This document shows positions 22,371-47,322 of a stretch of 64,000 bases of DNA, piece by piece. The notes below the pieces were generated by a model. That model was not told the DNA's origin and did no database searches. It saw only the letters and a program-made list of their open reading frames with translations. The position numbers were made by a program, and so were the translations under genes. The stretch spans positions 704,001 through 768,000 of the forward strand of contig CBDCWI010000001.1 of NCBI GenBank assembly GCA_965223325.1. Direction: 5' to 3'. This stretch comes from Candidatus Multivoradales bacterium. GTDB taxonomy: Bacteria > Acidobacteriota > Thermoanaerobaculia > Multivoradales > Multivoraceae. Each line of letters opens with the position of its first letter. Position 1 is the first letter of the stretch.

Positions 22371-22640
22371 GTCCACGGCTCGAGCTCCGTCTTCACCGCC
22401 TTCTTGGCGATCTGGAGGGCGGGGTCGCGGCCCCGGCTGCGGTTGAGGCTGCGGTTGGGGTTGGGAAACGGGCCGCGCCGGCGATCCTGGGCAGCGCGGC
22501 CCCTCTTCGGACTGCGGTGCGGAGCGCCGCCTGCCCGCGGGATCTCGACAGACGGGAACCGACCGCGACTGCACATTGAAACGTAGAGCCCTTGCTCTGC
22601 TATCTTCGGCCGCCGCCCCAACGACCCGTCCCCTCCAGAA

Positions 22641-24248
<1,608 letters not shown>

Positions 24249-24273
24249 GTCCCAACAACAGAATCCCTCCTCC

Positions 24274-25206: not shown

Positions 25207-25213
25207 ACCGGCC

Positions 25214-25528: not shown

Positions 25529-25572
25529 GTACACCCCCCTCATCCCACTCGGGCATCGCGCCAACTCCGAGA

Positions 25573-25861
25573 GGGCGGAGAGTGGAGCTCGGGACTGCCC
25601 GCGGAGCAGTCAGACGGTAAAGGCGCAGGATCCAGCTTAGGGGTGCACGGCGTGCGGGGCGGATCAGGGTGGGTAAGTGTCTGAGCGGAGCACCCACCCA
25701 AGAACCAGGCCGCGATGGACCAAGAGAAACCAACGAAGACCGCCGCGCTACCGGCGAAGCGCAGCGAGTTTTGCCCACCCCCGCCCCGCGCCCCGGGCAC
25801 CCCTTAGCTGGATGCGCCGGCCGTCGCGGAGCGGGCAGTCCCGGAGCTCCACTCTCCGCCC
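25573..25861. repeat. Long imperfect inverted repeat (~290-bp palindromic element, REPIN/MITE-like)
   Basis: GGGCGGAGAGTGGAGCTC-GGGACTGCCCGC (25573-25602) matches the reverse complement of 25831-25861 with one indel. Inner arms ATCCAGCTTAGGGGTGC...GCGGGGCGG and CCGCCCCGC...GCACCCCTTAGCTGGAT also pair, as do GGGTGGGTAA and TTGCCCACCC. Confidence 0.88.
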
Positions 25862-25917
25862 GGCGACCTGGCACACCGTCACAATCCTGCACCCCCCACC
25901 CCCTGCACGCCACGACA

Positions 25918-25959
25918 CAATCCTGCCCCCAATCCTGCCCCCAGTCCTGCCCCCAATCC
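25918..25959. repeat. 12-bp tandem repeat (CAATCCTGCCCC) x3.5
   Basis: CAATCCTGCCCC CAATCCTGCCCC CAGTCCTGCCCC CAATCC, followed by ATCCC repeats. Confidence 0.9.
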
Positions 25960-25986
25960 AATCCCATCCCATCCCAAAAAGGCCGG

Positions 25987-27678
25987 TTAACCGCGTTCAG
26001 CAACCCAGCGCGCCAACGCCTCCCGATCGATCTTGGCGTTATGCCGAATGTCGACCGGAAACCCCGGATGAAACTCGATCCGCTCAATCTCACGACTCGC
26101 CGCATGCCGCCCACAAAGCTCAAACAGCTCTGCCCGCAACTCACCCTGGTCGCGCCCCCGAGACTCAACCTCGAGCTCAACACAAAGACCAGCAACAACC
26201 GACCCGTCATCAGCCAGAACCCCAACCAACGCCGACCGCCGAACGTCAGGATGCGTATTGATCGGACCTTCAGCGGCAATCGAATAAAGCGTGCTGAACG
26301 GCGTTTCGACCCGATGCGCCTTACGCCCACACATGAACAGCCGCCCCCGCCGATCGAAATACCCCACATCCCCGGTACGATGCCAGATCACCCCCCCGAC
26401 CAGGACCTTGTGGAAGGCGTCGGCAGTGGGGCTACCGACATAGCGCGGGCTCACGTTCGGGCCGGTGACCATGATCTCGCCGATCTCGCCAAGAGTCCGG
26501 GTCTTGATCTCGCTGATGTCGGAGCGGTCGTGCATCGGTTCGTCGGTGATCGGCACGATCTCGACCGAGACCTCCGGCAGCGGCCGGCCGACACAAACGC
26601 CGGCCCCTTTGCCTGTCTGCTCGCCGGCGCCCTCACGGATCTCAGATGATCCAATCGTCGCGATCGGAAGACACTCGGTCGCACCGTAGGGAGTGTGGAC
26701 CTCGACCTCGCTTCTGAGGCATGCCGCCAAGCGCTCGACAGACTCAGCGCGCGCCGGCGCACCGGCCGAGATCACCCGTTCGAGGCTCGGAAGTTGCCGG
26801 CGGTTGAGAGTGCAGTAGCGCCCGAGCTTCTCGACCAGCGCCGGGCTCATGAAGGCATTGGTGCACTCGTAGCGCTCGAGCGCCGCGAGGAGCTTCTCGG
26901 GATCGGCCGCGGCCGGCTGGCTGGCATCCATATCGGGGACCACCGCCGCCATGCCGAGAGCTGGCCCGAAGAGAGCGAACAAGGGAAAGGTCGCGAGATC
27001 GCGTTCGCCAGGCGTGATACCGAAACACTCGCGCAGCATGTCGACCTGCGCGGCGAACATGCCATGAGTGTAGAGCGCCCCCTTCGGAGGGCCGGTACTC
27101 CCGCTGGTAAACAGCACCGCCGCTTCGCTCGCCGCCCTCGATCGAGGCAACTCGAACTTCGCTTCTCCCAGGAGCTTTGCACCCCGGCGCTCGAGTTGCG
27201 CCTGGGTCATTCCCACGCCGGGTAAGAACCGAGGACCCACGGTGACCGCACGGCGCACCGTCGGGCGCCCCCAACCCAGCAACAGGCGAGCGATCTGGGC
27301 GCGGTGCACTCCCAGAAAAGCCACTGGGCCTACATCGGCGAGCGACCGCCGTACCCACTGTCGCGGAAGGCCGGGATCGATCAGAACGGGCACCGCCTCG
27401 ACTCGAAAGAGCGCGAAGACGAGGACAAAGAAGTCGAGGCCGGGCGGCACGAAGACAACACAACGATCACCGGCCGACCAACCGTCAGCCCGCAGACCGG
27501 CGGCCAGCGCGTCGACCCGGCGATCGAGGACTCCCGCCGACAGCTCGACAAACGATCCGTCGCGCTGGGCTACGGCAACGGCCAGACGCTCGGGATCCTC
27601 CTCGGCCAGAAAGCGTAGATGATTGCTGACGTTGACGGTGGCGGTCGGTTCCGCCGCTCGATTCTCTTGCGTCCTCAC
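25987..27678 (-). CDS. oleC: OleC-like AMP-dependent ligase (beta-lactone synthetase)
   Basis: LFTSGSTGPPKG, TPYGATE, WHRTGDVG, CGRKAHRV and the OleC-typical tail FPVDIRHNAKI. GTG 27678 overlaps the oleB stop (GTGA). Confidence 0.9.
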   Translation of the reverse strand: MRTQENRAAEPTATVNVSNHLRFLAEEDPERLAVAVAQRDGSFVELSAGVLDRRVDALAAGLRADGWSAGDRCVVFVPPGLDFFVLVFALFRVEAVPVLIDPGLPRQWVRRSLADVGPVAFLGVHRAQIARLLLGWGRPTVRRAVTVGPRFLPGVGMTQAQLERRGAKLLGEAKFELPRSRAASEAAVLFTSGSTGPPKGALYTHGMFAAQVDMLRECFGITPGERDLATFPLFALFGPALGMAAVVPDMDASQPAAADPEKLLAALERYECTNAFMSPALVEKLGRYCTLNRRQLPSLERVISAGAPARAESVERLAACLRSEVEVHTPYGATECLPIATIGSSEIREGAGEQTGKGAGVCVGRPLPEVSVEIVPITDEPMHDRSDISEIKTRTLGEIGEIMVTGPNVSPRYVGSPTADAFHKVLVGGVIWHRTGDVGYFDRRGRLFMCGRKAHRVETPFSTLYSIAAEGPINTHPDVRRSALVGVLADDGSVVAGLCVELEVESRGRDQGELRAELFELCGRHAASREIERIEFHPGFPVDIRHNAKIDREALARWVAERG

Positions 27679-28595
27679 TGACTGCCCGCCCCTAGAAAGC
27701 TCATGACCCTCTGCGTGACGGCAAGGCGCTCGTCCTCGAGCACGAAATGGCCGGCTTCGGGAAAGGCCTCGAACTCGGCCTCCGGGCAGCGGCGCTGCCA
27801 CTCGGCGTAGAAGTCCCGGTCGAAGATGAAGTCCTGAAGGCCGAAGAGGATGAGCTTGGGCACCTGGGTGAGCTTGCTCAAGCCAGCGGCCGTCGCATGA
27901 ACGTATTCCCAGGTGGGATGCGCCGGGCCAAGGGGAATGTCGGTGACAAAGCGGTGCACCGCGAGTCGATTCGCCCACGAGTCGTAAGGTGCTTTGTAAC
28001 CCGCGACTGCCTCGTCATCCAGGCCCCGGATCGCGCAGCGTTCGACGGTGCCGCGAACGAAGAGGTTGAGGCCCCGCACCAGCAATGCTCCCAGAAGTGG
28101 TGTTCGAGCGAGCCGCAGCTCAGGCATCACGGGCTTGCCTTCTGGCAGCGGAAACGCCGAGGTGTTGAGGAGAACCAAGCGCTCAACGCGCTCGCAATGG
28201 CGCGTCGCCCAGGACGACGCGATCATGCCACCCCAGTCGTGAGCGATGAAGGTCACGCGATCGAAGCCGAGGGCGTCGATCAAAGCGTCGAGCTCAGCCA
28301 CCCGGCGCTCGAGGGTGAAGCTCCAGTCAGCAGCTCTCGGCTTCTCCGACAGCCCGCACCCTATCCAGTCAGGCGCGATGACCCGCCGGCTCTGGCTGAC
28401 CGGCGGAATCAGGTGCCGCCAGTGGAAGCTCCACGTCGGGTTGCCGTGCAACATGAAGACCGGTGACCCCTCGGGAGCGCCCTCTCTCGAAGCTTCATCG
28501 AGGTAATGCAGACGAGCTTGTTGCCCTCCGATGTCGAGGTCCAGCCAAGCGGAGCGCAGGTCTCTGATTGCCGCACGGCAGGCGAATTCGTTCAC
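27675..28595 (-). CDS. oleB: OleB-like alpha/beta hydrolase (haloalkane-dehalogenase-like beta-lactone decarboxylase)
   Basis: LHGNPTWSF, APDWIGCGLSEKP, nucleophile HDWGG, FVTDIPL and AGHFVLED; located between oleA and oleC. Alternative start GTG 28697. Confidence 0.88.
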   Translation of the reverse strand: MNEFACRAAIRDLRSAWLDLDIGGQQARLHYLDEASREGAPEGSPVFMLHGNPTWSFHWRHLIPPVSQSRRVIAPDWIGCGLSEKPRAADWSFTLERRVAELDALIDALGFDRVTFIAHDWGGMIASSWATRHCERVERLVLLNTSAFPLPEGKPVMPELRLARTPLLGALLVRGLNLFVRGTVERCAIRGLDDEAVAGYKAPYDSWANRLAVHRFVTDIPLGPAHPTWEYVHATAAGLSKLTQVPKLILFGLQDFIFDRDFYAEWQRRCPEAEFEAFPEAGHFVLEDERLAVTQRVMSFLGAGSQ

Positions 28596-28690
28596 GAAGG
28601 AATTGCCGGTGGGAGGGAGGTCTCTACAAGAACAGCAGGAACAAGGGCAGCTGCAAGAGGAGCAGGAGGAGAAAAAAGCGGCTAAGGCGC

Positions 28691-29806
28691 CTACCACTCA
28701 ACTCCCAACATCAGGCAGTTGAGCCCGCTTCCAATGCCCAGAAGGCCGACCCGGTGGCCACTCTCGAGGAAACCACGCTCCTCCGCCAGGGCCAATGCCA
28801 CGGGCACCGCGGCGGTGCCGGTGTTGCCCAGGAAGGCATAGGCTGCGAAGTCACGATCTTCCGGCATGTCGAGAGCTTCGAGCACCGCCTGGCGATGGCG
28901 GGCGCCAACCTGGTGGCAGACGGTGCGGTCGATCGAGTCACCGCGCCACCCGATCTCGGGCAGGAAACGCTGCCAAGTTCGACGAGCGATCTCGAGCCCG
29001 TGTTCGAGCACCTTGGGCGCATCGGTCTCCATGATCTGACGGTACAGCGGAATTCGATCGAGCGCCGCGCTCATCGCACCACTAGCGGGCAGGGCTTCGC
29101 TTTCCCCCGGATAACGAGTTTCCTCGATGCCCCAGCGACACAGTTCGTGGTGCTGCGGCTCGCTCTCGGCGACGCCGCCCAACAGACGATGGGTCGAGGT
29201 CTCGAAGGAGCCATCGGTGACCAGCACCGCAGCAGCTGCGGAACCACCGGTCAAGGTGGCGATCGAGAGCCGAAAGTTGTCGGCGTCGCCTTCTCCCTTC
29301 AAACGCGCGACGGTGGTCTCGACGATGTCGCGCGCACTCTCGCAGGTAACCACCATGCCGGCCTTGATCTGGCCCAGCTCGACCCGGTTGGCCATATCGA
29401 CGACCGCCGAGAGAACCCCCAGGCAGGCATTGGAAATGTCGTAGATCATCGCCGCCGAGGGGAGGAGGTGGCCGAGCTTGTCGAGCTCAGCGGCCACACG
29501 ACAGGCGGTCGCCGGCTCATGCAGGTCGCGGCAAACCCCGGCATAGGCGAGGGCGCCCACCTCGCTCGCTTTGACCGCCGAGCGTTCGAGCGCCGATCGA
29601 GCGGCAAGAGCCGCCCCACGCGCCATCGAGAAGCCCGGCTCCCAGAAGCGGCGTTCCTCAATCCCAGTCAACGGCTCGAGCTGGCCAAGCGCCAGGCCGA
29701 GACGCCGATAGACCGACTCGAGGCGCGACTCGAGTTCGTCGGAGTCGACGACCTCAGCCGGCAGTTCGTAGCCGATCGCGTCGAGATGCGCTGATCGATA
29801 ACGCAA
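28691..29806 (-). CDS. oleA: OleA-like thiolase-fold (KAS III family) head-to-head condensing enzyme
   Basis: VCRDLHEPATA (OleA-type Glu motif), DISNACLG (Cys), CHQVG (His), LGNTG (Asn), GIGSGLN. TTG start follows GGAAGG. Confidence 0.9.
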   Translation of the reverse strand: MRYRSAHLDAIGYELPAEVVDSDELESRLESVYRRLGLALGQLEPLTGIEERRFWEPGFSMARGAALAARSALERSAVKASEVGALAYAGVCRDLHEPATACRVAAELDKLGHLLPSAAMIYDISNACLGVLSAVVDMANRVELGQIKAGMVVTCESARDIVETTVARLKGEGDADNFRLSIATLTGGSAAAAVLVTDGSFETSTHRLLGGVAESEPQHHELCRWGIEETRYPGESEALPASGAMSAALDRIPLYRQIMETDAPKVLEHGLEIARRTWQRFLPEIGWRGDSIDRTVCHQVGARHRQAVLEALDMPEDRDFAAYAFLGNTGTAAVPVALALAEERGFLESGHRVGLLGIGSGLNCLMLGVEW

Positions 29807-30002
29807 GATGCACAGGCCTTCCTGGAAGTCGTGGGGAGAGCCGCGCTCGCACAGAGGGCGCGGCGTTTGGGACGGCGGCCGCCGTCTCGAAGAGGCATCC
29901 TATCCGAAGTGCCGAGGAACACCAGAATTCGGCTCCCGCCCCCCGCCTGTCCCCGCCGATCGCCGGTCGACGGCCGTCCGTCACCCGCAAAAAGAGCTTC
30001 TC

Positions 30003-33000
30003 TCAGGAGGCCTGGATCGCAAAGTCCGTCATCTGGTAGATCACCCGGCCGTCGACCCGCAAGAAGGCATCGGCGCGGATGATCCGCGCCAAATCATCGA
30101 TCTCACGGATCGAGGCCTGGACCTCGACTCGGGAGTCGGACGGGATGACCTGGCCGCGGTAGCTCCAGGAATGCTCGTGACCCACTGGGAACGTCGCAAA
30201 CCGCATGCCGTCAGAGGTCTCGGCTCCCCAGCGATCGAAAGCGATGGCCTTGAGCAATTGCAGGGCCGCCTCGAGACCCAGCGAGCCTGGCCACACCGGG
30301 TCCTCGAAGAAGTGTGCCTCGAAGAACCAGAAGCTCGGGTCGACCCCGATCGAACCATCAATCAGGCCGCGGCCGTGCGCGCCACCGGTGGGATCCCAAC
30401 GATCGATGTCAGAAACCATGCGCATCTGCGCAGCCGGAAGCGGCGCCACATCAGGCAGCGGACCCATGGCCTGACCGCCGGGGTTCTCGATCCACGGCGC
30501 GTCGCGCATGCCGACCTGATTGGCGAGCGCCGCCTGTCCGAAGAACCCGAAGTAGGTCGTGCCGCGATAGCAGGGGCCGAATTCTCGACTCGTCACCTCG
30601 AGCGCGTAGTGCTGAATGATCATGTCGGCGCTCTTGCTGACCGAAGTGAGCTCGGCGCGCGTCGTCAGAACGTCGGGTACGCGAGAGAGGGGCGTGAGCA
30701 GCGTCGCCTCGCCACCGAGGTTGCGGAACTTGAGATCGGTTTCGCTCTCGAGCGCCGAACCGCAGTAGGCCGCCAACCACCCGCAGGGCTGCAAAGCTGC
30801 CTCGAGAAGTACCGCGAATGGCAGGGCGTCCTGGCGGTTGGCGCCATAGAACCACTGCTCCGGCTCGACATCCCACTGCGCCTCGCAGGAAGCCCCAGCC
30901 TTCATCTCGAAAGGCTGACCTGAAAGTGCAGTGATGCGATCGAGAAACTGGAAGGGCGGACGCGGCAGCCGGGCGATCTTGCGTTGCTCGTCGAACACCA
31001 GGTAGGGCGCACCGAAGGCCTCTGACGGCCGGCCGGTCGAGAACGCCAGAATGCGCTCCCGGTCGTAGATCGCCGGCAGAACGTCTGGGCCTCCAGTCGA
31101 TGCGCTCTCGCGGCCAGAGGCTGGCAAGCCCCAGAGGACCTCGAGCGCCTGGCGATCCGTACCGGTCAAGCGGAGCGACATGCCGTCCATCTCGACGATC
31201 GGTCGACCGTCGGCGAACATGAGAGCACGCACGATAGCGTAGGGCGCACCCTCGTCTCCCGGCGCCCCGCCGCCTTGAGGGTGAAAGCGCCGCGATGGGC
31301 GGCCATAGCCGACTTCCTGCACGTCGATCTCATAGGCCACTGTTTCGGTGCTCTCGAGCACTTGACCCCGGCAACGCAGGCGACCGGCAACGCCGGGCAC
31401 CGGCTGCCAGGCCGAATCGTCGCCGCCGAGCCAACCGAAACGCAGGAGCAAAACCCGGAGGGTGTGCAAGCAGCACTCGTACATCAGGGTTCCGGGCATC
31501 ACCCGGTCATCGACGAAGTGACAGGTCAAGAACCAGTCCTCGGGGTCGATATCCGCCTCTCCACGGACAAAACCGAGGCCGGCCGAGCCGCCGTTCGGTT
31601 CGAGGGCGGTGATCCGGTCGACGAGCTCGAGCATCCCACCCGGCAGGGTGTTGACCTCCCCGACGACGCGCTCGGGTTCTAGGAAGGCCGTGCCGAAAGC
31701 CTGGGCGAGCTTTCCGCTACGGAGGGCAAGGAGAGCAACGCGGTCATAGCTCTCGGTTTCCTCAGCTGCCATGGGTGCCAATTGCAGGTTGCCGGCGCCC
31801 CCGGTCGCGGGCACGGATTCCGCCGGCATGGGCGGGCGTTCGACGACACCTTTCCCCGCCGCCAGTTCGGCTTCGGTGAAAAAGCCCGCACATCCATCGC
31901 GCATCGTGAGGACCGGGTCGCCGGACGGTGTCACCGCGTCGTAGTGAAATCGAAACAGCCAGGTGTCACCCTGTTTGAAGAAGCGGTCGATCTCAATGTC
32001 GTAGCGAATCGTCTCACCAGCGGCCGGCAATTCACGGTGGAAGGTGACCGTTGCATCGAGCAGCCGATAGACGGCCTCGCCGCGCGTCTCGAGGTCGACT
32101 CCCAGAAAGCCCGCCAGGAAAAGGTCGGCCTGGCCGGCCTCAACCACGATCGCGGTTGGAATACGTCCGGCGTCGAGATACCAGCGGTCGGCAGTGACGT
32201 CATGTTCGGTGACCACGCGTCCATGATCCATGGCAAGGGGTTCTGCATCGATCTCGAGAATCCGGTCGACAAGCATCAAGGGCTCGTCGGGCAAGCGCAC
32301 GCGGGTGGGGAAGGTGTCGGCTTCTCTGTAGCGGGCACCAAGGACGGCACCAATGCGGCCACGGGCGAACTCCAGACAGGCCTCGCGGTCCAGACTGCGT
32401 GGCGGTTCAGCCGGCGGTGCCGCACCTGGTTCAGGCGGTTGCCCCTCCTCGTGCTGGACGCTGCTCTGCCCCATGCGTCGGGCCAGCGCCCGGGTGAGCT
32501 TCTGGTAGTCGGCATCGGCACCTTCGTCGATCGCACTGCGGGCCGCCTGGACGGTCAGGGGCACCGCCTCAGGTCGGGGCGGTCGAGGGCGGGGCTCCTC
32601 TCTTGGCTTGCTCCGAACGGAGGATCTCGCTCCTGGAGCCGGCGATCCCGGCGAAGCCACCTCGCCAACCCGCCCGCCAACCGGAAGCGGGCGCGACCTC
32701 TCAGGCTCTCGAGGCTTCTGAGTCCGGTCCGCGACCGGCAGACTGCCCGACTGCGGCGGCTGGCGGCGAGCGCGAACTTCCGCCGCCAGGTCAGAGAGAC
32801 CGGCGAAGTCCGCGCGGCCCACGGGCACCTCGAGTCTCCGTACAGAAGGCGTTGGCAGCTCCCGCGCCGAGCCGCCGAAAAGGGCGGCCAACGACAGCGG
32901 AACACGCTCGGTGGCCAGCATCGCGAGCACGCGCAGCAGCGAGCCCGGCGACGAGATCGACATCGGCCCCACCGCCATCGAACGTGCCCGATGCGGGCGA

Positions 33001-36000
33001 CCCTCGAGAACCCGCGAGACCATGCGCGAGCAACTGGCGCCCGGGCCGAGTTCGATGAACAGCCGCACACCGTCGTCATAGGCCGCTGCAACCGTGGCAC
33101 TGAAGTCGACCCGACCGGTGGCCTGGGCGGTGATCGACTGGGCGGGTGCACCGGGCACTCCGGGGTCGTAGGTTGCGGCAGCGGCACTGCTGTAGAAGCG
33201 CACCCCATCGACAGACTGGCTCGGGATGTCGTGCAGCGCACGGTACTTGGCTTCGACGACCCGCGCGATATCGCAGTGCACCGTCACGACGCCGTCGACG
33301 GTCTGACAGTTGGCACCCAGATGGGCGATCAGGCGATCGAGTGCACGACCCTGCCCACCCACCACACACTCGCCAGGTGCATTGATCACCAGCACAGAGG
33401 CACGAGCCAGCCCGAGTTCGGCAATCGCCTGGTCGACGCGCTCCGCATCTTCTTCGAAGGTGGCCACCGTCCACTCGACCTCTTCGTCTTCGGGAAGCTC
33501 CCACAGGCGGCGGGCCGCCAGGCAGGCGCCCGCCAGCCACTCGGTGAACAAGTCCGACTCGAGCACTCGTTCGAGCAGCTCGCCGGGCTCGCTGAACGCG
33601 CCGAGCGAAACCAGCGACGTCGTTTCCCCCAGCGAGTATCCGATGGCCGCCTGCGGGGCGACCTGGAAGCTCTTGATGAGATCGGTCGTCAGGGTGCCGA
33701 ACGCGACCTGCGCCATCAACAGGTCGCGCGGCTCCTCTGGCTCACCGGCGACGTGCCCATCCCAGATCGTCTCCGGGCGAATGGCAGGGCGCAAGCGACT
33801 CCAGCGGGCCTCGGCGGCTTCGAGAATCTCGGGAAAGAGCACGCCGAGCGCCCGGCCCATCTCGGGGTAGTGACTGCCGGACCCCGGATAGACGAAGGCG
33901 ACATCTCCTCGAGGGCCGAGCGGCTCGGGAGCGAAGAACACCCGCCCTGCCGAATCGCGCTCCAGCTCCCGTCGATCGACAGCGGTCACCACGCCGCCGC
34001 GCGCCCGCCCAACCAGCTCGAGCAGTTCAGGCACCGAGCGCACCACCAACGACACCGCCAACGCTGGCGCCGCATCGCCCTCCGGCCGGGAGAGACCCGA
34101 CGGGTGATCGAGCCACCAGCGCCTCGCCAGCGAGGCGAGCACGTCGGGGTCACCATTGGCGTGCGCCAGAGCACTGGCGACATCGCGCAGGCGGTCGAGC
34201 TCGCGCACCAGATCGTCTCTGGTTTCGCCTTCGACGACGAACAACGACTCCTCGAAGGGCCCGAGTGGGCTACGGAAGACCTGCGGTTCGGGAGCCCGGG
34301 GAGCCTCGGCGAGAACCGCATGCGCGGCATGGCCGAGTGTCGACATCGACGACACGCCGGCCAGACGAGGCATCGTGCCCTCGCGCAGCCAGAAGCGTGG
34401 GTCCGATAACGAGAGCGCTTCGCCAACTTCCGAACGCTTCGCTTGCCCCGGGGGCCCGGGAGGAAGCAACCGGTGCTCGAGCGCCCAGGTTGCGCGCGCT
34501 ACCGACGCGAGCCCACCCGCCGCGCCGGTATGGCCCACCGTCGCCGCCACCGACCCCAGACATGGCGGCAGACCCCCGCGATCGGTTCGGGCTCTGGCGA
34601 TCTCTCCGAGAACGCTGGCTTCGACCCGGTCCTCGGCCGGGTTCCCGCTGCCGTGAGTCTCCAGGAGGCGCAACGCCGAAGCCATCGTGTCGGCGTTCCG
34701 ATGGGCTCGATCGACGGCGGCGACGTAAGCCTCTGGTGACGGTGGAGCCGCGAGCATCGACAGGTCGATGGTCTCACTTTCTGGCTGCCAGTGACCGCTC
34801 GCCTGCCCTACTCCCAGCACGCGGGCGCGCGAGTTCTCGTGCAGTCCCGTACGCAACACCAGGGTGACGGCACCTTCGCCGGGGACGATCCCCGCGGCAT
34901 GGCGATCGAAGGGCCGGCTGACACCCGAGCGATCGACCAACCGGACGTTCTCGTACGGCAAGAGAGCGCGCGGATCTCCAGTCGTATCGACACCGCCGAC
35001 GACCGCGACCTCGAGATCTTCGCCCTCGAGGTAGCCGAGCGCCGTCTCGAGCGCTGTCAGGCCTCCGCTCTCACCGCTCCCGAGAACGAAACTCGGTCCC
35101 CCAATACCGAACTCGCGGGCGATGCGGCTGGCCACAATGCCGCCCAGTGCGCCGACGGTCCGGTTCGCGTCGAGCGCTGGATGCAAGGCGTCGAGAGCCC
35201 GCGAGAGCTCGTCTGCCGAGAGCTCGAGGCTGTGCAACCACTCGCGTGCCAAAGCCGCCCAGCGCAGGTGGAAGCCGGTGGTTTCGGGGTCGAGTGAAAT
35301 GGCGTAGAAGACACCGGTTGCGAGGCCGAGTGCCGGCGGCAGGCGACCATCGCTGGCAAGCAGTCCAGAATCGGCAAGCGCTTCCCGGGCGGTCATCAAG
35401 GCCAGCAGCTGCTGCGGCAGACTCTCGAGGAGCTCGCGCGGCGGAACCCGCAACTGGCCGAGTGGAATGTCGAGGTGGTCGAGAAAGTAACCGACAACAG
35501 TCGACGCCAGACCCTCGCAACCGACGCGGGGCTCTGGCGAAACGCTCCGACCTCCACCGAGGAGGCGACGGGACACCGCGCGACGATCACCCCAGGGCCC
35601 GAGGCGCGCACCCAGGCCGACAATCGAAACCGTCACCGGCGAGCGTTCCGGCAGCTCGAGCGCGCCCTGGCCGGGAACCCCGAGGGCTCGAGATTCGCGC
35701 CACTCTTCGAGCAGCACATGAGCGTTGGTACCGCCGAAGCCGAACCCAGACACCGCACAGCGGCGCGCGCGACCTTCGGGATCGGGCCACGGAATCGCCT
35801 GATCGAGAACCCGGAAAGGACCGTCGCCGAATGACGAGCCCTCGATGGCTTCGCGGTGGTTGGCAATCGGGGCCAGGGTCTCGTTTTCGAGCGCCAGGAG
35901 AGTCTTGAGCAGGCCGGCCGCGCCGGCGCCGGTCAGCAGATGGCCAACGTTCCCCTTGACCGCACCGAGAACGGTTCCACCCGGCCGCCAGTCACGATCT

Positions 36001-37091
36001 CGAAAGAGCTGCCGCAGACTGTCGAGCTCCGCGGCATCGCCGAGCCGAGTTCCCGTCGCGTGGCATTCGACATGATCGACGGTCTCCGGGCCCCACCCGG
36101 CGCGCGCATAGGCGGCACGCATGGCGCGCACCTGGCCCTCCTCGCTCGGTGCCAAGAGGCGCCCGTCGACGTCGTTGGAAAGACCGATGCCGCGGATGAC
36201 GGAGAGAATGCGGTCACCCTGGTCGAGTGCGTCGGCGAGTCGTTTGAGCACGAAGGCACCGCCGCCCTCACCGACCACCAGACCGTCGGCCGCACGATCA
36301 AAGGGGGAACAACGACCGCTCGGCGACAGTGCCTGGAGCTGGGCAAACCCCATCTGGGTGTACAGCGCGTCGGGCCGTGAGACCCCCCCGGCGAGCACTG
36401 CGTCGACGCGCCGCGCGAGCAGGTCGCGAACCGCGATGTCGAGCGCGAACAATGACGAGGCACAGGCGGCGTCGAGAACCCGATAGCCGCCTCCGAGACC
36501 GAGGACCCGTGCGAGAACGGCTGCCGGCGCGTCGAAGGCCCAGCGGTTGAGGTCGGCCGGCAGGCTCTCTCCAGACAGCGGCGGCCGCTCGCCCCCGAGA
36601 GCCTGACCCAACCGGTGCTCGAACTCGCGCCCCAAGAGTCGGTCGGAAAGGCGCGAGCCGCTCTCGGTCGGCAGCGCGATGTTGGCCAACACCACCGAGA
36701 TGCGGGTTGGGTCGACCTGTTCCATCGCAGCGCTCTTCCACGCTCGATAGCCCGCTGTGAGCGCCACCTGAATCGACGGGTCGAGGTGTGCCCAGGCGCC
36801 GCCCAGGGTGTCACGCAGCTCCGCAGGCGCCTCGAGCTCCGTCAGGAAACAGGCACGGCGAGAGTAGACCCGGTCAGCTGTTCCCTTCTCCGGGTCGTAG
36901 GCCCTACCCAGGTCGAGCGTGAAGCGACCGGCAGGTGGCTCGGACGCGGTGTCGTGACCGCTTTCGACGATCTTCCAGAAGGCCTCGAGATCGGGGGCGC
37001 CGGGCAGAACTCCACCCATCGCCACGATCGCAACCGCTTCCTGGTGGGCCGTCCGCCCCCCGTTGGGGCGCGGGAATCGCGCTCTAGACAT
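30003..37091 (-). CDS. pfaC: PUFA synthase PfaB/C-type fusion: KS - CLF - AT - four FabA-like DH/pseudo-DH domains
   Basis: KS motifs DAACASS, CHATGT, GHLLTGAG; second KS-like domain lacks the Cys (LGSGESGG); AT motifs YPGSGS, GYSLGE; FabA-like motifs WFLTCHFVDDRVMPG and WFFEAHFFEDPVWPG. Start ATG 37091 (track start 37136). Confidence 0.92.
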   Translation of the reverse strand: MSRARFPRPNGGRTAHQEAVAIVAMGGVLPGAPDLEAFWKIVESGHDTASEPPAGRFTLDLGRAYDPEKGTADRVYSRRACFLTELEAPAELRDTLGGAWAHLDPSIQVALTAGYRAWKSAAMEQVDPTRISVVLANIALPTESGSRLSDRLLGREFEHRLGQALGGERPPLSGESLPADLNRWAFDAPAAVLARVLGLGGGYRVLDAACASSLFALDIAVRDLLARRVDAVLAGGVSRPDALYTQMGFAQLQALSPSGRCSPFDRAADGLVVGEGGGAFVLKRLADALDQGDRILSVIRGIGLSNDVDGRLLAPSEEGQVRAMRAAYARAGWGPETVDHVECHATGTRLGDAAELDSLRQLFRDRDWRPGGTVLGAVKGNVGHLLTGAGAAGLLKTLLALENETLAPIANHREAIEGSSFGDGPFRVLDQAIPWPDPEGRARRCAVSGFGFGGTNAHVLLEEWRESRALGVPGQGALELPERSPVTVSIVGLGARLGPWGDRRAVSRRLLGGGRSVSPEPRVGCEGLASTVVGYFLDHLDIPLGQLRVPPRELLESLPQQLLALMTAREALADSGLLASDGRLPPALGLATGVFYAISLDPETTGFHLRWAALAREWLHSLELSADELSRALDALHPALDANRTVGALGGIVASRIAREFGIGGPSFVLGSGESGGLTALETALGYLEGEDLEVAVVGGVDTTGDPRALLPYENVRLVDRSGVSRPFDRHAAGIVPGEGAVTLVLRTGLHENSRARVLGVGQASGHWQPESETIDLSMLAAPPSPEAYVAAVDRAHRNADTMASALRLLETHGSGNPAEDRVEASVLGEIARARTDRGGLPPCLGSVAATVGHTGAAGGLASVARATWALEHRLLPPGPPGQAKRSEVGEALSLSDPRFWLREGTMPRLAGVSSMSTLGHAAHAVLAEAPRAPEPQVFRSPLGPFEESLFVVEGETRDDLVRELDRLRDVASALAHANGDPDVLASLARRWWLDHPSGLSRPEGDAAPALAVSLVVRSVPELLELVGRARGGVVTAVDRRELERDSAGRVFFAPEPLGPRGDVAFVYPGSGSHYPEMGRALGVLFPEILEAAEARWSRLRPAIRPETIWDGHVAGEPEEPRDLLMAQVAFGTLTTDLIKSFQVAPQAAIGYSLGETTSLVSLGAFSEPGELLERVLESDLFTEWLAGACLAARRLWELPEDEEVEWTVATFEEDAERVDQAIAELGLARASVLVINAPGECVVGGQGRALDRLIAHLGANCQTVDGVVTVHCDIARVVEAKYRALHDIPSQSVDGVRFYSSAAAATYDPGVPGAPAQSITAQATGRVDFSATVAAAYDDGVRLFIELGPGASCSRMVSRVLEGRPHRARSMAVGPMSISSPGSLLRVLAMLATERVPLSLAALFGGSARELPTPSVRRLEVPVGRADFAGLSDLAAEVRARRQPPQSGSLPVADRTQKPREPERSRPLPVGGRVGEVASPGSPAPGARSSVRSKPREEPRPRPPRPEAVPLTVQAARSAIDEGADADYQKLTRALARRMGQSSVQHEEGQPPEPGAAPPAEPPRSLDREACLEFARGRIGAVLGARYREADTFPTRVRLPDEPLMLVDRILEIDAEPLAMDHGRVVTEHDVTADRWYLDAGRIPTAIVVEAGQADLFLAGFLGVDLETRGEAVYRLLDATVTFHRELPAAGETIRYDIEIDRFFKQGDTWLFRFHYDAVTPSGDPVLTMRDGCAGFFTEAELAAGKGVVERPPMPAESVPATGGAGNLQLAPMAAEETESYDRVALLALRSGKLAQAFGTAFLEPERVVGEVNTLPGGMLELVDRITALEPNGGSAGLGFVRGEADIDPEDWFLTCHFVDDRVMPGTLMYECCLHTLRVLLLRFGWLGGDDSAWQPVPGVAGRLRCRGQVLESTETVAYEIDVQEVGYGRPSRRFHPQGGGAPGDEGAPYAIVRALMFADGRPIVEMDGMSLRLTGTDRQALEVLWGLPASGRESASTGGPDVLPAIYDRERILAFSTGRPSEAFGAPYLVFDEQRKIARLPRPPFQFLDRITALSGQPFEMKAGASCEAQWDVEPEQWFYGANRQDALPFAVLLEAALQPCGWLAAYCGSALESETDLKFRNLGGEATLLTPLSRVPDVLTTRAELTSVSKSADMIIQHYALEVTSREFGPCYRGTTYFGFFGQAALANQVGMRDAPWIENPGGQAMGPLPDVAPLPAAQMRMVSDIDRWDPTGGAHGRGLIDGSIGVDPSFWFFEAHFFEDPVWPGSLGLEAALQLLKAIAFDRWGAETSDGMRFATFPVGHEHSWSYRGQVIPSDSRVEVQASIREIDDLARIIRADAFLRVDGRVIYQMTDFAIQAS

Positions 37092-37170
37092 TGCGCTGGA
37101 CTCTCCGGAACTCAAAGGCAGAACTCGAGAACTCAAAGGATACGGGCTCAGAAAGGGTGAGGGTAGGGTG

Positions 37171-43100: not shown

Positions 43101-44448
43101 GGATCCAGGGGCGCCTTACGGTGTTGAGATAGAACGGCGTGCTGCCAGGCGCAACCGCATCGTTCGGCGTATCGACTTTGATCGTCGGCGGCAGCACCCG
43201 ATGCCACAGCGCCAGGACCGCCTTGATCAGGCCGGCAGCCCCGGCGGCGGCTTTGGTATGGCCGATTTGGGACTTCGCCGAACCGAGGGCCACCCAGGTA
43301 CCTTCGGGGGAGGCCTTGCGGAAGACCCGGTCGAGGGCGCGCGCTTCAACTGCGTCGCCGACCCGAGTCCCGGTCCCGTGAGCCTCCACCAACTCGATGG
43401 TCGCGGGACTGACACCCGCATCTCGGTAGGCAGCTTCGAGGCAGCGGGCCTGACCGGCATCGCTCGGCGCATAAACCGCCATCCCCGCACCATCACTCGA
43501 GGAACCGATGCCACGGATGACGGCGTAGATGCGATCGCCGTCGCGCTCGGCATCGGCGAGGCGCTTTAGAACCAGAACTCCCAGGCCCTCGCCGAGGGTC
43601 GTGCCGTCACCCTCGGCTTCGAAGGGGCGTGCATTGCCGCTCGGCGAGAGCGCCGGCGTCTTGCTAAAGCACATGTACATGAAGATGTCGTTGAAGGTGT
43701 CGACACCACCGGCCAGGGCAACATCGGCCCGACCACTTTCGAGCTCGAGCGCCGCCATGTAGAGCGCCGACATCGAAGACGCGCAAGCCGCGTCGACGAC
43801 GCAGTTGGTGCCGAGCAGGTTCAGGCGGTTGGCGATGCGACCCGCTGCCACGTTGCCGAGCAGGCCGGGAAACGAGCTCTCGCGCCAAGGCGGGTACTGG
43901 TCACGAATGCGCTCGACGACATCGGCGGCAACCTCGGGGGAGACCCCCGCGTCAGCCAGGGCGCGCTTCCAGATCGGATGTCCCAGACGTGCCCCCAATG
44001 GCACGACCAACTCGAGGGCGCCGGTGACGCCGAGAATCACCGAGGTCTTCTCGCGCGGCAGTTCGCGCGGTCCACCCTCGCCGTACCCCGCATCGTCGAG
44101 CGCTGCCTTGGCAACCGCCAGGCTGAGCAACTGACTGGTGTCGGTCGCGTCGAGATCGCGCGGCGAGATACCGAACTCCATCGGGTCGAAGTCGACCGGA
44201 TCGATGAAGCCACCACGGCGGCCGTAGGTCTGATCGGTCGCCTGCCGGTCCTCGTTCCAGTAGTCGTCGGGTGACCAATGGGTCTCCGGCACCTCTCGAA
44301 TGGCATCGATGCCATCGCGCAGCAGATCCCAGTACCCCGCGAGGTCACGGGCTCCGGGAAACATGCACGACAGGCCAACGATGGCGAGTGGATTGCGTGG
44401 TGCGTTTTGCGCCAACGCTCGAGAGGAGTTCTTCGGGCTGGGGGTCAT
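37171..44448 (-). CDS. pfaA: PUFA synthase PfaA-type: KS - AT - 4xACP - KR - PKS-type DH
   Basis: KS DAACASS, EAHGTGT, GHTKAAAG; AT FPGQGAQ, GHSYG, AAFHS; four DLGIDSIKRVEIL ACPs; KR SGGARGV, HGAGVLRD, YAVAN; DH HVMNGRAVLP and DVAFQ. Confidence 0.95.
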   Translation of the reverse strand: MTPSPKNSSRALAQNAPRNPLAIVGLSCMFPGARDLAGYWDLLRDGIDAIREVPETHWSPDDYWNEDRQATDQTYGRRGGFIDPVDFDPMEFGISPRDLDATDTSQLLSLAVAKAALDDAGYGEGGPRELPREKTSVILGVTGALELVVPLGARLGHPIWKRALADAGVSPEVAADVVERIRDQYPPWRESSFPGLLGNVAAGRIANRLNLLGTNCVVDAACASSMSALYMAALELESGRADVALAGGVDTFNDIFMYMCFSKTPALSPSGNARPFEAEGDGTTLGEGLGVLVLKRLADAERDGDRIYAVIRGIGSSSDGAGMAVYAPSDAGQARCLEAAYRDAGVSPATIELVEAHGTGTRVGDAVEARALDRVFRKASPEGTWVALGSAKSQIGHTKAAAGAAGLIKAVLALWHRVLPPTIKVDTPNDAVAPGSTPFYLNTVRRPWIPRLTDAETGGLEVLYPRRAGVSAFGFGGTNFHCVVEEAHHAAADWGGAPLLFAFCGQSVEDTRGKAQLLANELAEVTGSADEMRRFAARTRRSYDASQPVRLVVVAASADDAGEAFERAIAAGDDLGERSFLSLLGGTVWATGRRGRAAAVFPGQGAQAPGMLRDLACRFPVMQDALAEADFESMRAGGAERLSDLIYPHPAFDGETLAAQRAALQATDRAQPALGAVEYGAFLVLRSLGFEAAAFAGHSYGELVALAAAGRLESSELHRLSYLRGQLMASVGGDVGRDPGSMLAVLAEAPEVEGFLGRHQLDLVIANRNSPRQHVLSGATSEIERAASLLASEGLAGKQLAVAAAFHSSLVEAAAAPFTAALAAVSLGIGDQGTGTGGLVFANATANVYPDDPEAARELLGAQLARPVAWQGVLEAMAESGIDTFVEVGPGRRLSGLVDDTLGEAVVALAIDPAGDGAVAGLARAVAGLAARGVEIDLALWDPLPDPVSISPSKRRPFTVALSGANHREPVPPRPPRPAPAPEFPTPESPTPLPALAAPVSHPAGALSSFISPPDEPALSGLAEGDPMHEVLRSLLRLQETNAEIHRRFLDGQESISRQIERVLEQAADASSTAVAPPTAVAPRVAASSEPSRDARPGPVVSPAPAPVATPSQTPVPAVPGPLVQALFEAVSEKTGYPVEMLEPAMELDADLGIDSIKRVEILAALEERFPELPRLEAERLGGLRTLAEVVATLEEGAPQLAALEQPAHSPAVLSSAAAAVSDDLRAALFEAVSEKTGYPVAMLEPAMELDADLGIDSIKRVEILAALEERFPGLPRLEAERLGELRTLADVVGVLGGGTGAVSAAMPSVAAENSAPAENGAPAVPLAVEEPARVIASARAATSLETLSQALFDAIAEKTGYPADMLEPQMGLDADLGIDSIKRVEILAALEEKFPELPRLEAEQLGALRSVEEVLAALATGLAAADVAAAPDASGPPAAQEGLAAADSEAIERALYEAVAQKTGYPIEMLEPQMGLDADLGIDSIKRVEILAALEERFPALPRLDADDLGRLRTLADVAEAITQPAAEASPAGSREPNLGPEPAPPVQAGPLANAGVPAPAVAPEPVAVASRTVATGEALPRFVSFVDEGVPAAGDSPPLLPPGALVWVTEAGDGVAQALASELEALGFHAEVVDPRALPSPPAILDGLLLLAPDRSEAAHDWLWEAFSTVQHAASAFRRQADGSERPLIAAVTRQGGAFGFEAPAEGGIVSSAIAGLIRTVAREWPEVTTRVVDVEAAELENGVARLARALVQIGPPEIGLQRERTLRLGVRPTPLPSAALLNGHARSFTAEDFLVISGGARGVTAECAVALAAAGVGRLALLGRSPLPASDDAFSGVADSDLERAVLDAALAAGEKLKPRELTLRCQKVRARREIETTLSRVRAAGAEASYLSVDVRDAQATAGVILALETEHGAVTGLVHGAGVLRDAAIEEKTEADWRTVYDTKVRGLENLLASLAHRELSWLALFSSSTGRFGRRGQVDYAVANAALDSHALAFAQRHPEARAVSVGWGPWDGGMVDASLKNLFRAEGVEVVPLAEGGRQLVRELLEAPRDQTLVVILGAGSNLEGLVDEPPEEPATTGTRAVASRVATPPAGSEITISEQTMRLASTGSEAAEQRWQTAFGRLVSLESHPFLASHVMNGRAVLPAAMMVEWLAHGALHGQPGLRFFGVDDLRVWKGVRVAHEEITVRIEAGSSRWEREGDTATLLVPVRMISDGSNGEAVLHCGADIVLTERLPKAPAAGPRPESGEPIDRSLDQIYDELLFHGPALHGLTSIEGWSGAGIVGRTRTAEAPAQWMQSPIRASWIADPLALDVAFQLMIVWSRNHSERGSLPARLPCYRQYVRSLRGGELEVTARVREAGERIARADLEWLRDGQVVARLDGYECVIDAALNGAFARNRIDSLPMTRRRPIRPGESPTR
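39880..41075 (-). repeat. Four tandem ACP-encoding repeats inside pfaA (approximate bounds)
   Basis: Near-identical TCGACCCG(C/T)TTGATCGAGTCGAT(T/C)CC segments near 39980, 40290, 40660 and 40965, separated by Ala/Pro linkers. Confidence 0.9.
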
Positions 44449-44475
44449 GGGTTGCTTCTCGCTCTGGAAGAGGAA

Positions 44476-46206
44476 TCAGCCATTCTCGAGAGCTTCGAGC
44501 TCAGCCGGGGGCCGCGGACGTAGATCGATCTCGGGTAGCGCGGCGCCGCAGAGAGCGAGCGTGTTGTAGCGCGCCAGAACGGCCGCCGAGTGAAGCACCG
44601 CCAGCGCAACCTGAGGGGCTCGGCGTGCTTGCCAGTCTTCGAGCCAGGTGCCACGCACCCACTCGTTGAAGGCACCCATCGCTGGCCCGCACCACACCTG
44701 GTAGTCGGCCTCGCGTCCCGCTGCACCGGTGTTCGCCCAACGGGACGACTGGCCGAGATACCAGCGAAAGACGAGGGCCATCCTGTGCCGAGAATCGCGC
44801 GCCGCGCGCTCGAGTTGGCGCGGGTCGCGCTCACGCCAGAAGCTCTCGGTCTCGGCCCAGACCTCGTCGATCGACATGCGGAAGATCTGGCGCTCGAGAC
44901 GTTGGCGCTCGTCGTGAGGAATCGCTTCGAGCGCCTCGTGGCTCTCGTAGAGCTCGCGCAGCCGGCGGGCGCGCATCGCGAACATGGTTCCGCGCTTGAG
45001 AACCTGCAGGTCGACTCCCATTTCGAACATGTCAGCGGCAGGTGCCATCGCCACGTCGGCCTGTTCAGCCTCCGCCAACATCTGGCGAACGACGTCGGAG
45101 GTGCCGGCTTCGCGGCAGGCCTGATGGACGGTCCCTACCAGGACGTAGGCGGCGCCCATCGAGAAGGCGGCTTGCGCTGACCACGGGGTCGAGATTCCCC
45201 CACCGAGCCCCACTCGCGGCACACGCCGGTAGCCGCGCTCGGAGGCAATGCGGTCGCGCAGCGCAATCATCACCGGCAGAAGCGCGATCGCCGGCCGGTT
45301 GTCGGTATGGCCACCGGAGTCAGCCTCGACGGACAATTCGTCGGCCATCGGCAAGCTGCTGGCGAGCTGGGCTCGCTCCTCGTCGATCTCGCCGCGCGCG
45401 ATGAGTTCGCGCAACATGTCCTCCGGTGGCGGCTCGAGGAACTGGCGCGCTACCTCGTGCCGTGAGACCTTGCCGAAGATCCGGTGGCGGGCGACTGGTA
45501 AGCCCTCCTCGTCGCGGGCGATGCCAAGCACTCGGTAGCGCACCAGCGGCAACGTCAGGCGAAGGTAGGCCGACGCCGAAACCAAGCGCACTCCGCGGCG
45601 CAGGTAGAGGTCGACGATCTCGCGCTCGAGTTCCGCTTCGTACGGACTATGAATCAGGTTCGATCCCCAGGCGCGCTCCCCGAGGCGAGTGTCGAGGCGG
45701 TGAATGGCGTCTTCGACGACCGCCGGGCCAAGGCCGGCGGCGCCGAAGAAACCCAGCATGCCGGCACGCGCCATCGCTTCTGTGAGCTCGACCGAAGCGA
45801 TGCCGTTGGCCATCGCGCCGGCGACCCAGGCATAGCGCAGGCCGTGGTCACGGCGAAAGGACGGATCGCCCAGATCTTGTGGACCGAGCGGAGCGGACCA
45901 GGCAAGCGCCGGCCGCGGATGGACTCCGTGCTCGCCAGACTTCGGCGGAGCGCCGAGAACCGTCTCACCGTTCACTCCGAGGGCGAGGCCCTCTCCAGGC
46001 TTGCTCGGCCCGAGAAGCGTCACCGACTGGCGCACGTGCGCCAGGGCATCAGCCAGCACGTCGCCACCGTCGCCGGCCGAAAGACTGCGTACACCGTCGC
46101 CGCGGTAGAAACCGAGCGAACGAGCGCCGTTCGCCTGGTCAAGCCCGGCGGCGCTCTCCTGGGAAACAGAACCTACCCGAGGTGGCGAGGTGGACGCCCC
46201 TTGCAC
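44476..46206 (-). CDS. pfaD: PfaD-family enoyl reductase (FabK-like, FMN)
   Basis: AGAMANGIAS, NLIHSP, VEADSGGHTDNRP, APAADMFEMGV.LQVLKRGT and YQVWCGPAMGAFN; ends 27 bp before pfaA. Start uncertain. Confidence 0.94.
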   Translation of the reverse strand: MQGASTSPPRVGSVSQESAAGLDQANGARSLGFYRGDGVRSLSAGDGGDVLADALAHVRQSVTLLGPSKPGEGLALGVNGETVLGAPPKSGEHGVHPRPALAWSAPLGPQDLGDPSFRRDHGLRYAWVAGAMANGIASVELTEAMARAGMLGFFGAAGLGPAVVEDAIHRLDTRLGERAWGSNLIHSPYEAELEREIVDLYLRRGVRLVSASAYLRLTLPLVRYRVLGIARDEEGLPVARHRIFGKVSRHEVARQFLEPPPEDMLRELIARGEIDEERAQLASSLPMADELSVEADSGGHTDNRPAIALLPVMIALRDRIASERGYRRVPRVGLGGGISTPWSAQAAFSMGAAYVLVGTVHQACREAGTSDVVRQMLAEAEQADVAMAPAADMFEMGVDLQVLKRGTMFAMRARRLRELYESHEALEAIPHDERQRLERQIFRMSIDEVWAETESFWRERDPRQLERAARDSRHRMALVFRWYLGQSSRWANTGAAGREADYQVWCGPAMGAFNEWVRGTWLEDWQARRAPQVALAVLHSAAVLARYNTLALCGAALPEIDLRPRPPAELEALENG

Positions 46207-46395: not shown

Positions 46396-47322
46396 CTACA
46401 GGTCGAGGGCGGCTTCGAACTGCAGGGCCTTGCGCTTGAGCGCATCGAGGTGCGCGGGGCCCAGGCGCAGGAGCTGCTTCTGGGCGTCCGAGAGACTCTC
46501 GAGGCGCGGATCGACAAACTCCCAGCTGATGACCTTGCGGCGCACGGCGAGCTCCCCGCCGGGTGTGGGAACACTTTGTACCTTGTCGATCGCCCGCTTC
46601 AATGCTTCCCGGAAGGTTCCGGGATACCCGAGCTCCTGCCACTGCTCGTCGACCAGCGGTTCGAGATAGCGAAACGCCTCGACGGTACCCGCCACGTCGA
46701 GTGAGGTGAAGACAGCCACCGCTCGGTCAAATCGTGCGTAGCTGGTCGGGTCGATGGTGGCCGAGTCGTCGGTGCCAACGACCGCGAACGGCCGATCGGG
46801 ACGAAAGGCCGCGAGGTGAACGGAAGGGTCTTCGTCAAAGGCGATGTTTCCCACCACGGCGGTCAGGCGGCGCAGCACATCGTCGCTCGCCAGCCAGCGC
46901 ATCAAGCGCGGGTGCTCCGATACCTCGGCGGCGAGTTGGCGCACCAGCTCGTCGCTCGCCGAGAGCTCCGGCAGCGGCCCCAGATCGGGGCGGGCGGTGG
47001 CCTCCTGGCGCTCGGCCGGCGGGGTGACCGCCGGCGTCTCAGCAGCCGGAGACGATTCTGGGGCCGGCGGCTCCACCGGCCCATCGTCGCGCGGCCAGAA
47101 CCACCAGGTCAACAGGCCCAGCAACAAGGCCACCGCAACGAGTGCCCAGGGCACCCACGAGGAGCCAGTGCGCTCGTCCGGCTGCCATGCTTCGCCGGCC
47201 AGGACCGGCTCGTCGTCGTCGCTCGGTCGCAGGTCGAGGTCGAGCGGCTGATCGGCGGCGAGCGGTGAGGGCTCGTCGGTGAGTGGGTCGAAGCGCGGTT
47301 CGCCCGGTTCTTCAGCGGTCAT
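46396..47322 (-). CDS. DUF3014-like membrane-anchored protein
   Basis: One TM segment, a Pro-rich stalk, then LPELSASD, YARFD, ELGYP, FVDPRLESLSDAQKQLLRLGP. Start re-called to ATG 47322. Confidence 0.8.
   Translation of the reverse strand: MTAEEPGEPRFDPLTDEPSPLAADQPLDLDLRPSDDDEPVLAGEAWQPDERTGSSWVPWALVAVALLLGLLTWWFWPRDDGPVEPPAPESSPAAETPAVTPPAERQEATARPDLGPLPELSASDELVRQLAAEVSEHPRLMRWLASDDVLRRLTAVVGNIAFDEDPSVHLAAFRPDRPFAVVGTDDSATIDPTSYARFDRAVAVFTSLDVAGTVEAFRYLEPLVDEQWQELGYPGTFREALKRAIDKVQSVPTPGGELAVRRKVISWEFVDPRLESLSDAQKQLLRLGPAHLDALKRKALQFEAALDL

Follow-up and report, generated by a model that had tools for sequence, protein, structure and literature searches.

We analysed a 64,000-nt stretch of contig CBDCWI010000001.1 (assembly GCA_965223325.1), hereafter the window, whose numbering is used for all coordinates unless stated otherwise; its source genome is called G000, and two relatives that recur below, G563 and G572, belong to the same genus and the same family, respectively. 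Between 25987 and 46206 it carries six intact open frames, all on the minus strand, in the order pfaD-pfaA-pfaBC-oleA-oleB-oleC (Table 1). An earlier note on this DNA had described six co-oriented, closely spaced genes with intact motifs, and this description is borne out: the frames are open, the family scores lie above their cut-offs and the motifs are present. The bounds given there take in the six genes correctly, but they leave outside oleD and pfaE (16329-18175), the latter encoding an Sfp-type phosphopantetheinyl transferase (PPTase); these two genes overlap by 4 bp and are separated from oleC by four opposite-strand genes. From pfaD to oleC the intergenic gaps are 27, 79, 196, 95 and -4 bp, with start codons chosen by eye, and the oleB stop and the oleC start share a GTGA overlap. 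A 613-aa open reading frame that would give OleD a long N-terminal extension was rejected as an over-call: it overlaps the small plus-strand gene at 18278-18775, and the true start lies at 18175. Across all eight pathway genes, 22 kb in total, the frames are free of stops and frameshifts.

Table 1. Genes of the window and the second Pfa synthase of the same genome
Feature	Coordinates	Strand	Product and evidence
pfaD	44476-46206	-	enoyl reductase (ER), 576 aa; GTG start preceded by GGAGA ribosome site; TIGR02814
pfaA	37171-44448	-	KS-MAT-ACP4-KR-DH (PS type), 2425 aa; Pfam, TIGR02813, motifs, KS trees
pfaBC fusion	30003-37091 (frame open from 37136)	-	KS-CLF-AT-(pseudoDH-DH)x2, 2362 aa from ATG; Pfam, motifs
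oleA	28691-29806	-	head-to-head Claisen condensing thiolase, 371 aa, TTG start; NF006720, PDB alignment, trees
oleB	27675-28595 (open from 28697)	-	haloalkane-dehalogenase-like beta-lactone decarboxylase; GTG start at 28595 probable; alignment to linked homologues
oleC	25987-27678 (open from 27978)	-	AMP-dependent beta-lactone synthetase, 563 aa; PRK09274, motifs
oleD	17105-18175	-	2-alkyl-3-ketoacid reductase, 356 aa; separate unit 7.8 kb downstream of oleC
pfaE	16329-17108	-	Sfp-type PPTase; PF01648
pfa1-pfa2-pfa3	C1:552600-569934 (same contig)		ER / KS-AT-ACP3-KR-DH / KS-CLF-AT-DH-DH-DH4-like-AGPAT
small exported protein	18278-18775	+	no Pfam match; between oleD and RF3
SdrD-B surface protein	19050-22370	+	1106 aa, C-terminal hydrophobic tail; between oleD and RF3
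RF3	22641-24248	+	also between oleC and oleD in G563 and G572
RNase HI	24274-25206	+	310 aa; also between oleC and oleD in G563 and G572
DUF3014 gene	46396-47322	-	upstream of pfaD, likewise in G563 and G572; pathway role not apparent

Against curated family models, PfaD scores 607 bits with TIGR02814 (cut-off 449), PfaA 1497 with TIGR02813 (1010), OleA 436 with NF006720 (285) and OleC 618 with PRK09274 (478). Catalytic motifs were located by pattern search. In PfaA they comprise C222/H357/H397 of the ketosynthase (KS), S699/H807 of the MAT, Y1986 of the KR and H2142/D2318 of the DH domain, together with four acyl carrier protein (ACP) domains bearing DSIKRVE; PfaBC has KS C210/H344/H384, AT S1153/H1272, a CLF without Cys (read by eye), two FabA-type DH domains with their His (H1858, H2260) and two pseudo-DH domains lacking it. 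OleB retains HGNPTW, HDWG, D254 and H282, and OleC retains FTSGSTGPPK, YGATE, TGD and NAKI. In OleA, E97-P98, C128, H298 and N328 correspond to the Glu117-Pro and Cys/His/Asn equivalents of the family, and the four catalytic residues are invariant in all 48 aligned OleA sequences; the top PDB chains in the alignment are ones that we take to be Xanthomonas OleA. Both Glu117 of OleA and the role of OleB have been described (PMC7064751). A six-gene set with intact motifs is far beyond chance.

The arrangement is that of the Type I synthases of Shulse and Allen (2011, PMC3098273), which were defined by a pfaBC fusion in Deltaproteobacteria and Gemmata and proposed to supply olefin precursors, the ole genes often being linked. 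Compared with the rows in the supplement of that study, where Geobacter bemidjiensis is entered as ER / KS-MAT-ACP5-KR / KS-CLF-AT-DH2 / PPTase, the window has the same order ER / KS-MAT-ACPn-KR / fused KS-CLF-AT-DH2, with multiple ACPs and an Sfp-type PPTase. Neither an AGPAT nor a thioesterase domain was found in window PfaBC by Pfam domain scan, and its domain set is that of a Desulfuromonadia protein (locus L154). For G. bemidjiensis Bem, a tandem pfaD, A, B, C, oleA, B, C, D, pfaE and production of hentriacontanonaene (C31:9) have been reported (Yoshida et al., 2016, PMC4882568), so the earlier suspicion that the layout might not be new was well founded. The cluster is thus an ordinary new example, in a new host class, of a gene order already published for Geobacter. 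The window proteins are 42-56% identical to Desulfuromonadia copies over the best segments, with the same gene order, domain order and OleA clade as G. bemidjiensis and a KS clade in common with Desulfuromonadia genomes. The two systems differ in that window PfaA has four ACPs and Geobacter five, that oleD-pfaE is displaced and a second Pfa synthase exists in the genome, and that the acidobacterial host carries a heme-copper oxidase motif and is not an anaerobic metal reducer.

Phylogenies of the PfaA KS and of OleA place the cluster among ole-linked systems. In both, the references were set by record title or by model cut-off and do not include characterised, named enzymes; the Desulfuromonadia references are genomes of the class reached via a locus titled Trichloromonas sp. 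(L008), and Types I, J and K are not separated. For the KS tree (IQ-TREE, with FastTree versions also made) 44 of 61 sequences were used; a second Streptomyces KS, two PfaBC-type outgroups and 14 rows of ole-associated lineages with dense sampling were omitted. The window KS is sister to that of G563 (ultrafast bootstrap, UFBoot, 99), within an acidobacterial subclade (100) and, with the Desulfuromonadia-type synthases, within an ole-associated synthase clade (99); the KS sequences of Nostoc (plasmid), Persicobacter, Beijerinckia and the Shewanella type fall outside this clade, and the window KS does not group with the type A-like, D-like, P or myxobacterial-type sequences. The OleA tree (48 sequences, unrooted, no FabH outgroup) is split at UFBoot 100 by a branch of 1.1. 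In one clade the window groups with Desulfuromonadia, Gemmatales-named proteins and two genomes with an OleC above the cut-off of the Shewanella model; stand-alone acidobacterial OleA falls in the other, along with genomes in which OleC reaches or comes close to the cut-off of the Xanthomonas model. A PfaA KS match at E 1e-80 was present in none of eight genomes with a stand-alone or Xanthomonas-type ole cluster and in both Shewanella-type genomes. By its clade, OleA is of the Pfa-associated type, and it is not the ordinary FabH that would have spoken against the pathway, scoring 78 bits with the FabH model against a cut-off of 292.

Comparison with other known systems helps to delimit the cluster. 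Zeamine and fabclavine synthases have non-ribosomal peptide synthetase, aminotransferase and reductase partners, and enediyne synthases a single-ACP PksE with a thioesterase; no such partners occur among the 39 window open reading frames scanned and PfaA has four ACPs, so that these types are excluded, by architecture only. Plasmid searches for named zeamine or enediyne KS sequences yielded no identifiable member. The Hgl type (Type F), in which HglC is reported as KS-CLF-AT without DH (PMC3098273), is excluded by the FabA-type DH domains and by the separate position of the Nostoc plasmid KS, and the grouping with Hgl that would have undermined the earlier assignment did not appear. Shewanella Pfa (Type A) with OleABCD has the same enzyme set, proposed chemistry and large OleA clade (PMC6463001), but in neither of the two Shewanella-type genomes inspected is pfa linked to ole, and their KS belongs to a different clade; Type A is described with separate pfaB and pfaC and as making eicosapentaenoic acid (EPA) (PMC3098273), unlike the fused pfaBC here. 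This fusion and the separate grouping of Shewanella-type KS rule out a Type A/B synthase for EPA or docosahexaenoic acid. Xanthomonas-type OleABCD, fed by type II fatty acid synthase (FAS II), agrees with the window in the catalytic residues of OleA, the E117-P equivalent among them, but its OleA is 31-33% identical to that of the window and belongs to the opposite clade, and no Pfa synthase was found in the three Xanthomonas-type genomes tested. The myxobacterial Pfa1-2-3 systems with AGPAT (Aetherobacter, Minicystis; PMC6731297, PMC4882568) have the pfaD-first order in common with the window cluster, which is nevertheless not of that type, having no AGPAT on PfaBC and standing apart in the KS tree (the two clades have UFBoot 99 and 100).

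Since gene and domain order are those of G. bemidjiensis, the KS falls in the ole-associated clade and OleA in the Pfa-associated one, we consider it probable that a Type I (Geobacter/Gemmata-type) secondary lipid synthase here works with OleABCD to make a long-chain polyunsaturated olefin, with all-cis C31:9 as the likeliest product. The two clade placements likewise support the dedicated polyunsaturated hydrocarbon pathway proposed earlier. PfaE would first put phosphopantetheine on the four PfaA ACPs, and PfaA, PfaBC and PfaD would then build up, by iteration, a polyunsaturated acyl chain for which 16:4 n-3 is predicted. OleA would take chains from the ACPs and condense two of them to a beta-keto acid, which OleD would reduce; OleC with ATP would form the beta-lactone, and OleB would decarboxylate it to the olefin. 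The chemistry of these steps and C31:9 itself come from the literature on relatives, the genes, domains, catalytic residues, clades and synteny being observed here. Co-expression of OleA with Pfa has been reported to yield a C31:8 ketone without an acyl-CoA synthetase, in a model in which OleA takes 16:4 off the PfaA ACPs (Allemann et al., 2019, PMC6463001). We infer that the cluster is expressed, the chain length, and an olefin role for the window synthase alongside a phospholipid role for a second synthase described below.

Several observations weigh against this assignment. The link from Pfa to C31:9 in Geobacter itself has been termed speculative (PMC4882568), and in the window oleD and pfaE stand in a unit apart from the main cluster. 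OleC scores 558 and 543 bits with NF045785 and NF045786, under the narrow cut-offs of 850 and 900, and OleD 389 and 338 bits with NF042422 and NF042423, under a cut-off of 580, so that neither protein reaches the Shewanella or Xanthomonas equivalog thresholds. Judged by near-invariant alignment columns, the window proteins are also at the divergent end of their homologue sets: PfaA departs at 28 of 413 columns (homologues 1-28), PfaBC at 35 of 487 (2-68), PfaD at 11 of 155 (0-13), OleB at 9 of 53 (0-34) and OleC at 10 of 128, exceeding all 23 homologues (1-8). On the other side, the OleC and OleD models are still the best NCBIfam matches of the two proteins, and NF045785 is so narrow that none of 401 genomes in the class of genome G589 passes it. 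OleD is 45-62% identical to OleD of linked clusters, and OleC and OleD together are 39-62% identical to linked homologues. The divergent columns include no checked catalytic residue, and the homologue sets are dominated by distant lineages.

The same observations bear on two rival explanations. The pathway might end at a ketone or a beta-lactone, either with oleD detached or with OleB inactive: oleD forms a unit of its own at a distance of 7.8 kb, OleB shows the departures just given, and OleA alone is reported to give the C31:8 ketone (PMC6463001). We regard this as very improbable. OleD departs at only 1 of 49 near-invariant columns and stays with pfaE in G563 and G572, the nucleophile, acid and His motifs of OleB are intact, and reported beta-lactone producers are without oleB (PMC7064751), the presence of oleB in the window pointing to an olefin as end product. 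The ketone or beta-lactone alternative offered in the earlier note is weak, given an oleB and an oleD that both seem intact. A silent or decaying cluster, for which the divergent sequences and a patchy occurrence (4 of 61 genomes searched, G000 included) might be cited, is given an equally small chance, as the eight genes are free of stops and frameshifts over 22 kb, the checked motifs are intact and the GC content at third codon positions (GC3), 0.73-0.78, equals that of flanking genes.

The same contig also encodes a second complete synthase, pfa1-pfa2-pfa3, which is 51% identical to window PfaD and 42% to PfaA (best segment), and whose ACPs bear the same GIDSIKRVE motif as those of window PfaA. 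Its terminal acyltransferase domain matches PF01553 at E 6e-5, just over the cut-off, with an NHQxxxE motif, and its KS clade is recovered at UFBoot 100. It appears to be of the myxobacterial type, a label that rests on its architecture, as no named myxobacterial sequence is present in the KS tree; in such synthases the AGPAT is thought to pass the chain to lysophosphatidic acid (PMC4882568, PMC6731297). A PfaD-type gene is present in ten of the 61 relatives searched, and the two types occur together in G000 only; four further pfa-linked genomes of the phylum have a single PfaD-type gene each. Uniqueness of the two-type state is ruled out by G637, from another class, which carries an ole-linked and a second-clade synthase, with no AGPAT in the stretch inspected; the state is uncommon, not unique. 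Second-clade synthases also occur in G020, G177, G569, G571 and G575, and among those inspected far enough only G571 has a fused AGPAT-like part. Convergent with the second synthase, at C1:569945-573548, lie a GNAT gene and a gene for an AMP-ligase-ACP didomain protein (fatty acyl-AMP ligase-like). We also observed a pfa1-pfa2-pfa3 set with an AGPAT domain in an alphaproteobacterium, on plasmid AZO_p1 of Azospirillum lipoferum 4B (L085).

The PPTase encoded by pfaE is the sole PF01648 match found in the 98%-complete genome, and no AcpS match was found there; it would have to serve FAS II and both synthases, and this wider service may be why oleD-pfaE is separate from the cluster. A PfaT-type thioesterase was not identified, the genome having five 4HBT matches, none near the cluster.

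Because a second, AGPAT-fused synthase exists, the window cluster can be read as dedicated to hydrocarbon, and the pair suggests a division of labour in which the window cluster would provide hydrocarbon and the second synthase phospholipid PUFA. A strict division of this kind has, in our estimate, a little less than an even chance, and it is likelier than OleA docking on both. In the latter case, two Pfa megasynthases would run off one PPTase and OleA would draw on both carrier sets, giving polyenes longer than or different from C31:9 alongside PUFA phospholipids; we consider this distinctly doubtful. More broadly, the same pathway might make another product, of different length or unsaturation, or mixed olefins if OleA also draws on the second synthase or on FAS II. 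The second synthase with its shared ACP motif, the divergence of KS, CLF and DH or of OleA, and the report that domain swaps change the PUFA products of myxobacterial synthases (PMC6731297) lend this some weight. It nonetheless seems unlikely, given that the Pfa-associated products in the literature consulted are all C31:9 or its C31:8 ketone, that a given OleA reportedly accepts chains from FAS II or from Pfa but not from both (PMC6463001), and that relatives with the myxobacterial-type synthase only (G020, G571, G575) carry the other OleA clade. It is less probable still, to the point of being a slim prospect, that the synthase is dual-purpose as in Shewanella, with membrane PUFA as main product and the olefin as a side branch. 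Shewanella Pfa does yield both EPA and C31:9 without a fused AGPAT (PMC6463001), but the Shewanella-type KS lies outside the clade of the window, and the host owns another synthase with a fused AGPAT. Moreover, Gemmata obscuriglobus, which carries a Type I synthase (PMC3098273), is reported with 6.0% n-C31:9 and no PUFA listed among fatty acids at 0.5% or more (PMC7534041).

The distribution of linked clusters sets the proposed C31:9-type pathway in a wider context. At titled OleA loci, pfaBC lies directly upstream in 6 of 13. In Desulfuromonadia (the class reached via L008), 73 of 121 genomes have OleA, and the order pfaD-pfaA-pfaBC-oleA was found in all 14 inspected, which were picked from the 73 for long contigs. 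The class of G589, a genome whose record bears the title Alcaligenaceae, perhaps wrongly, is one that we infer to be planctomycete; it has an OleC-like gene in 295 of 401 genomes, and its OleA groups, with low support, with Gemmatales-named proteins; among 16 hand-picked genomes (13 high-scoring, 3 lower-scoring), 13 have pfaA-pfaBC-oleABCD and the remaining 3 have no PfaA KS match in the genome. Within Acidobacteriota OleA is rare, with 8 carriers among 401 genomes of the phylum and 7 among 61 relatives (G000 in both counts); searching the class with a single OleA protein (2 of 201) missed a distant OleA clade that a profile search recovered. In 7 of 12 distinct other acidobacterial OleA genomes the ole genes are pfa-linked: all eight genes are contiguous in G568, G519, G277 and G252 are contiguous from pfaD through oleD, G563 and G572 have oleD-pfaE displaced by 10-11 kb, and in G221 pfaA is followed by a 4-kb gap, with oleC not seen in the 13 kb inspected. 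The other five (G544, G011, G020, G571, G575) have a distant OleA (32-36% identity), with no upstream pfa genes in the stretches inspected. On plasmids no OleA match was found at E 1e-20. Four Pseudomonadota genomes (G1166, G1242, G1434 and G1387; L199-L202) have oleC-oleD or oleB-oleC-oleD with no OleA match in the stretch inspected.

G000, G563 and G572 share their flanks, with DUF3014 upstream and RNase H and RF3 downstream. This flanking synteny with two family relatives argues for inheritance rather than recent transfer, and the pattern is what would be expected if part of the family had inherited the cluster at a single chromosomal site; on the synteny and the GC3 values, recent horizontal transfer was rejected. 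Among named proteins, the closest to the neighbouring RF3 carry the label Thermoanaerobaculia (75, 73 and 72% identity) or Acidobacteriota, in line with the acidobacterial host thought probable in the earlier note, and an OleA labelled Acidobacteriota coincides in the tree with the OleA of a genome from the same family. On these two proteins the host probably belongs to Thermoanaerobaculia.

Elsewhere in the window, no sigma-70-like promoter was found in 15000-31000, where terminator-like sites show no excess (12 against 12.6 expected), and the window has no match to Rfam families. RNase HI has a second, degenerate RNase H-like domain, with two matched stretches. The intergenic region after oleC (25214-25900) is a repeat of about 690 bp, consisting of 3.4 tandem copies of a 92-bp unit and a core with an internal inverted repeat; the core recurs at eight other sites of the genome with 70-88% identity along at least some 300 bp, shorter matches occur elsewhere, and the repeat is possibly a MITE- or REP-like element. 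On the minus strand, 6469-10980 encodes a 1503-aa protein fusing a type IA topoisomerase, a RecQ helicase and an HRDC domain.

In the literature, oleBC or oleC has already been reported in metagenome-assembled genomes of Acidobacteriota (PMC13170169); a linked pfa-ole cluster or C31:9 in Acidobacteria was not found described in a search that did not extend to subscription journals and most supplements. With the present cluster the C31:9-type pathway reaches Thermoanaerobaculia and a small number of further acidobacterial lineages, and these would thereby join the possible sources of C31:9-type lipid in environmental samples; from the second synthase, PUFA phospholipids are predicted for an acidobacterium. 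Having both synthases in one genome would make it possible to ask cleanly whether Type I synthases are dedicated to hydrocarbon and what decides which set of ACPs OleA uses. If OleA does dock on both, a new class of olefin products may be expected, and the organism would be a natural test case for the choice of synthase by OleA.

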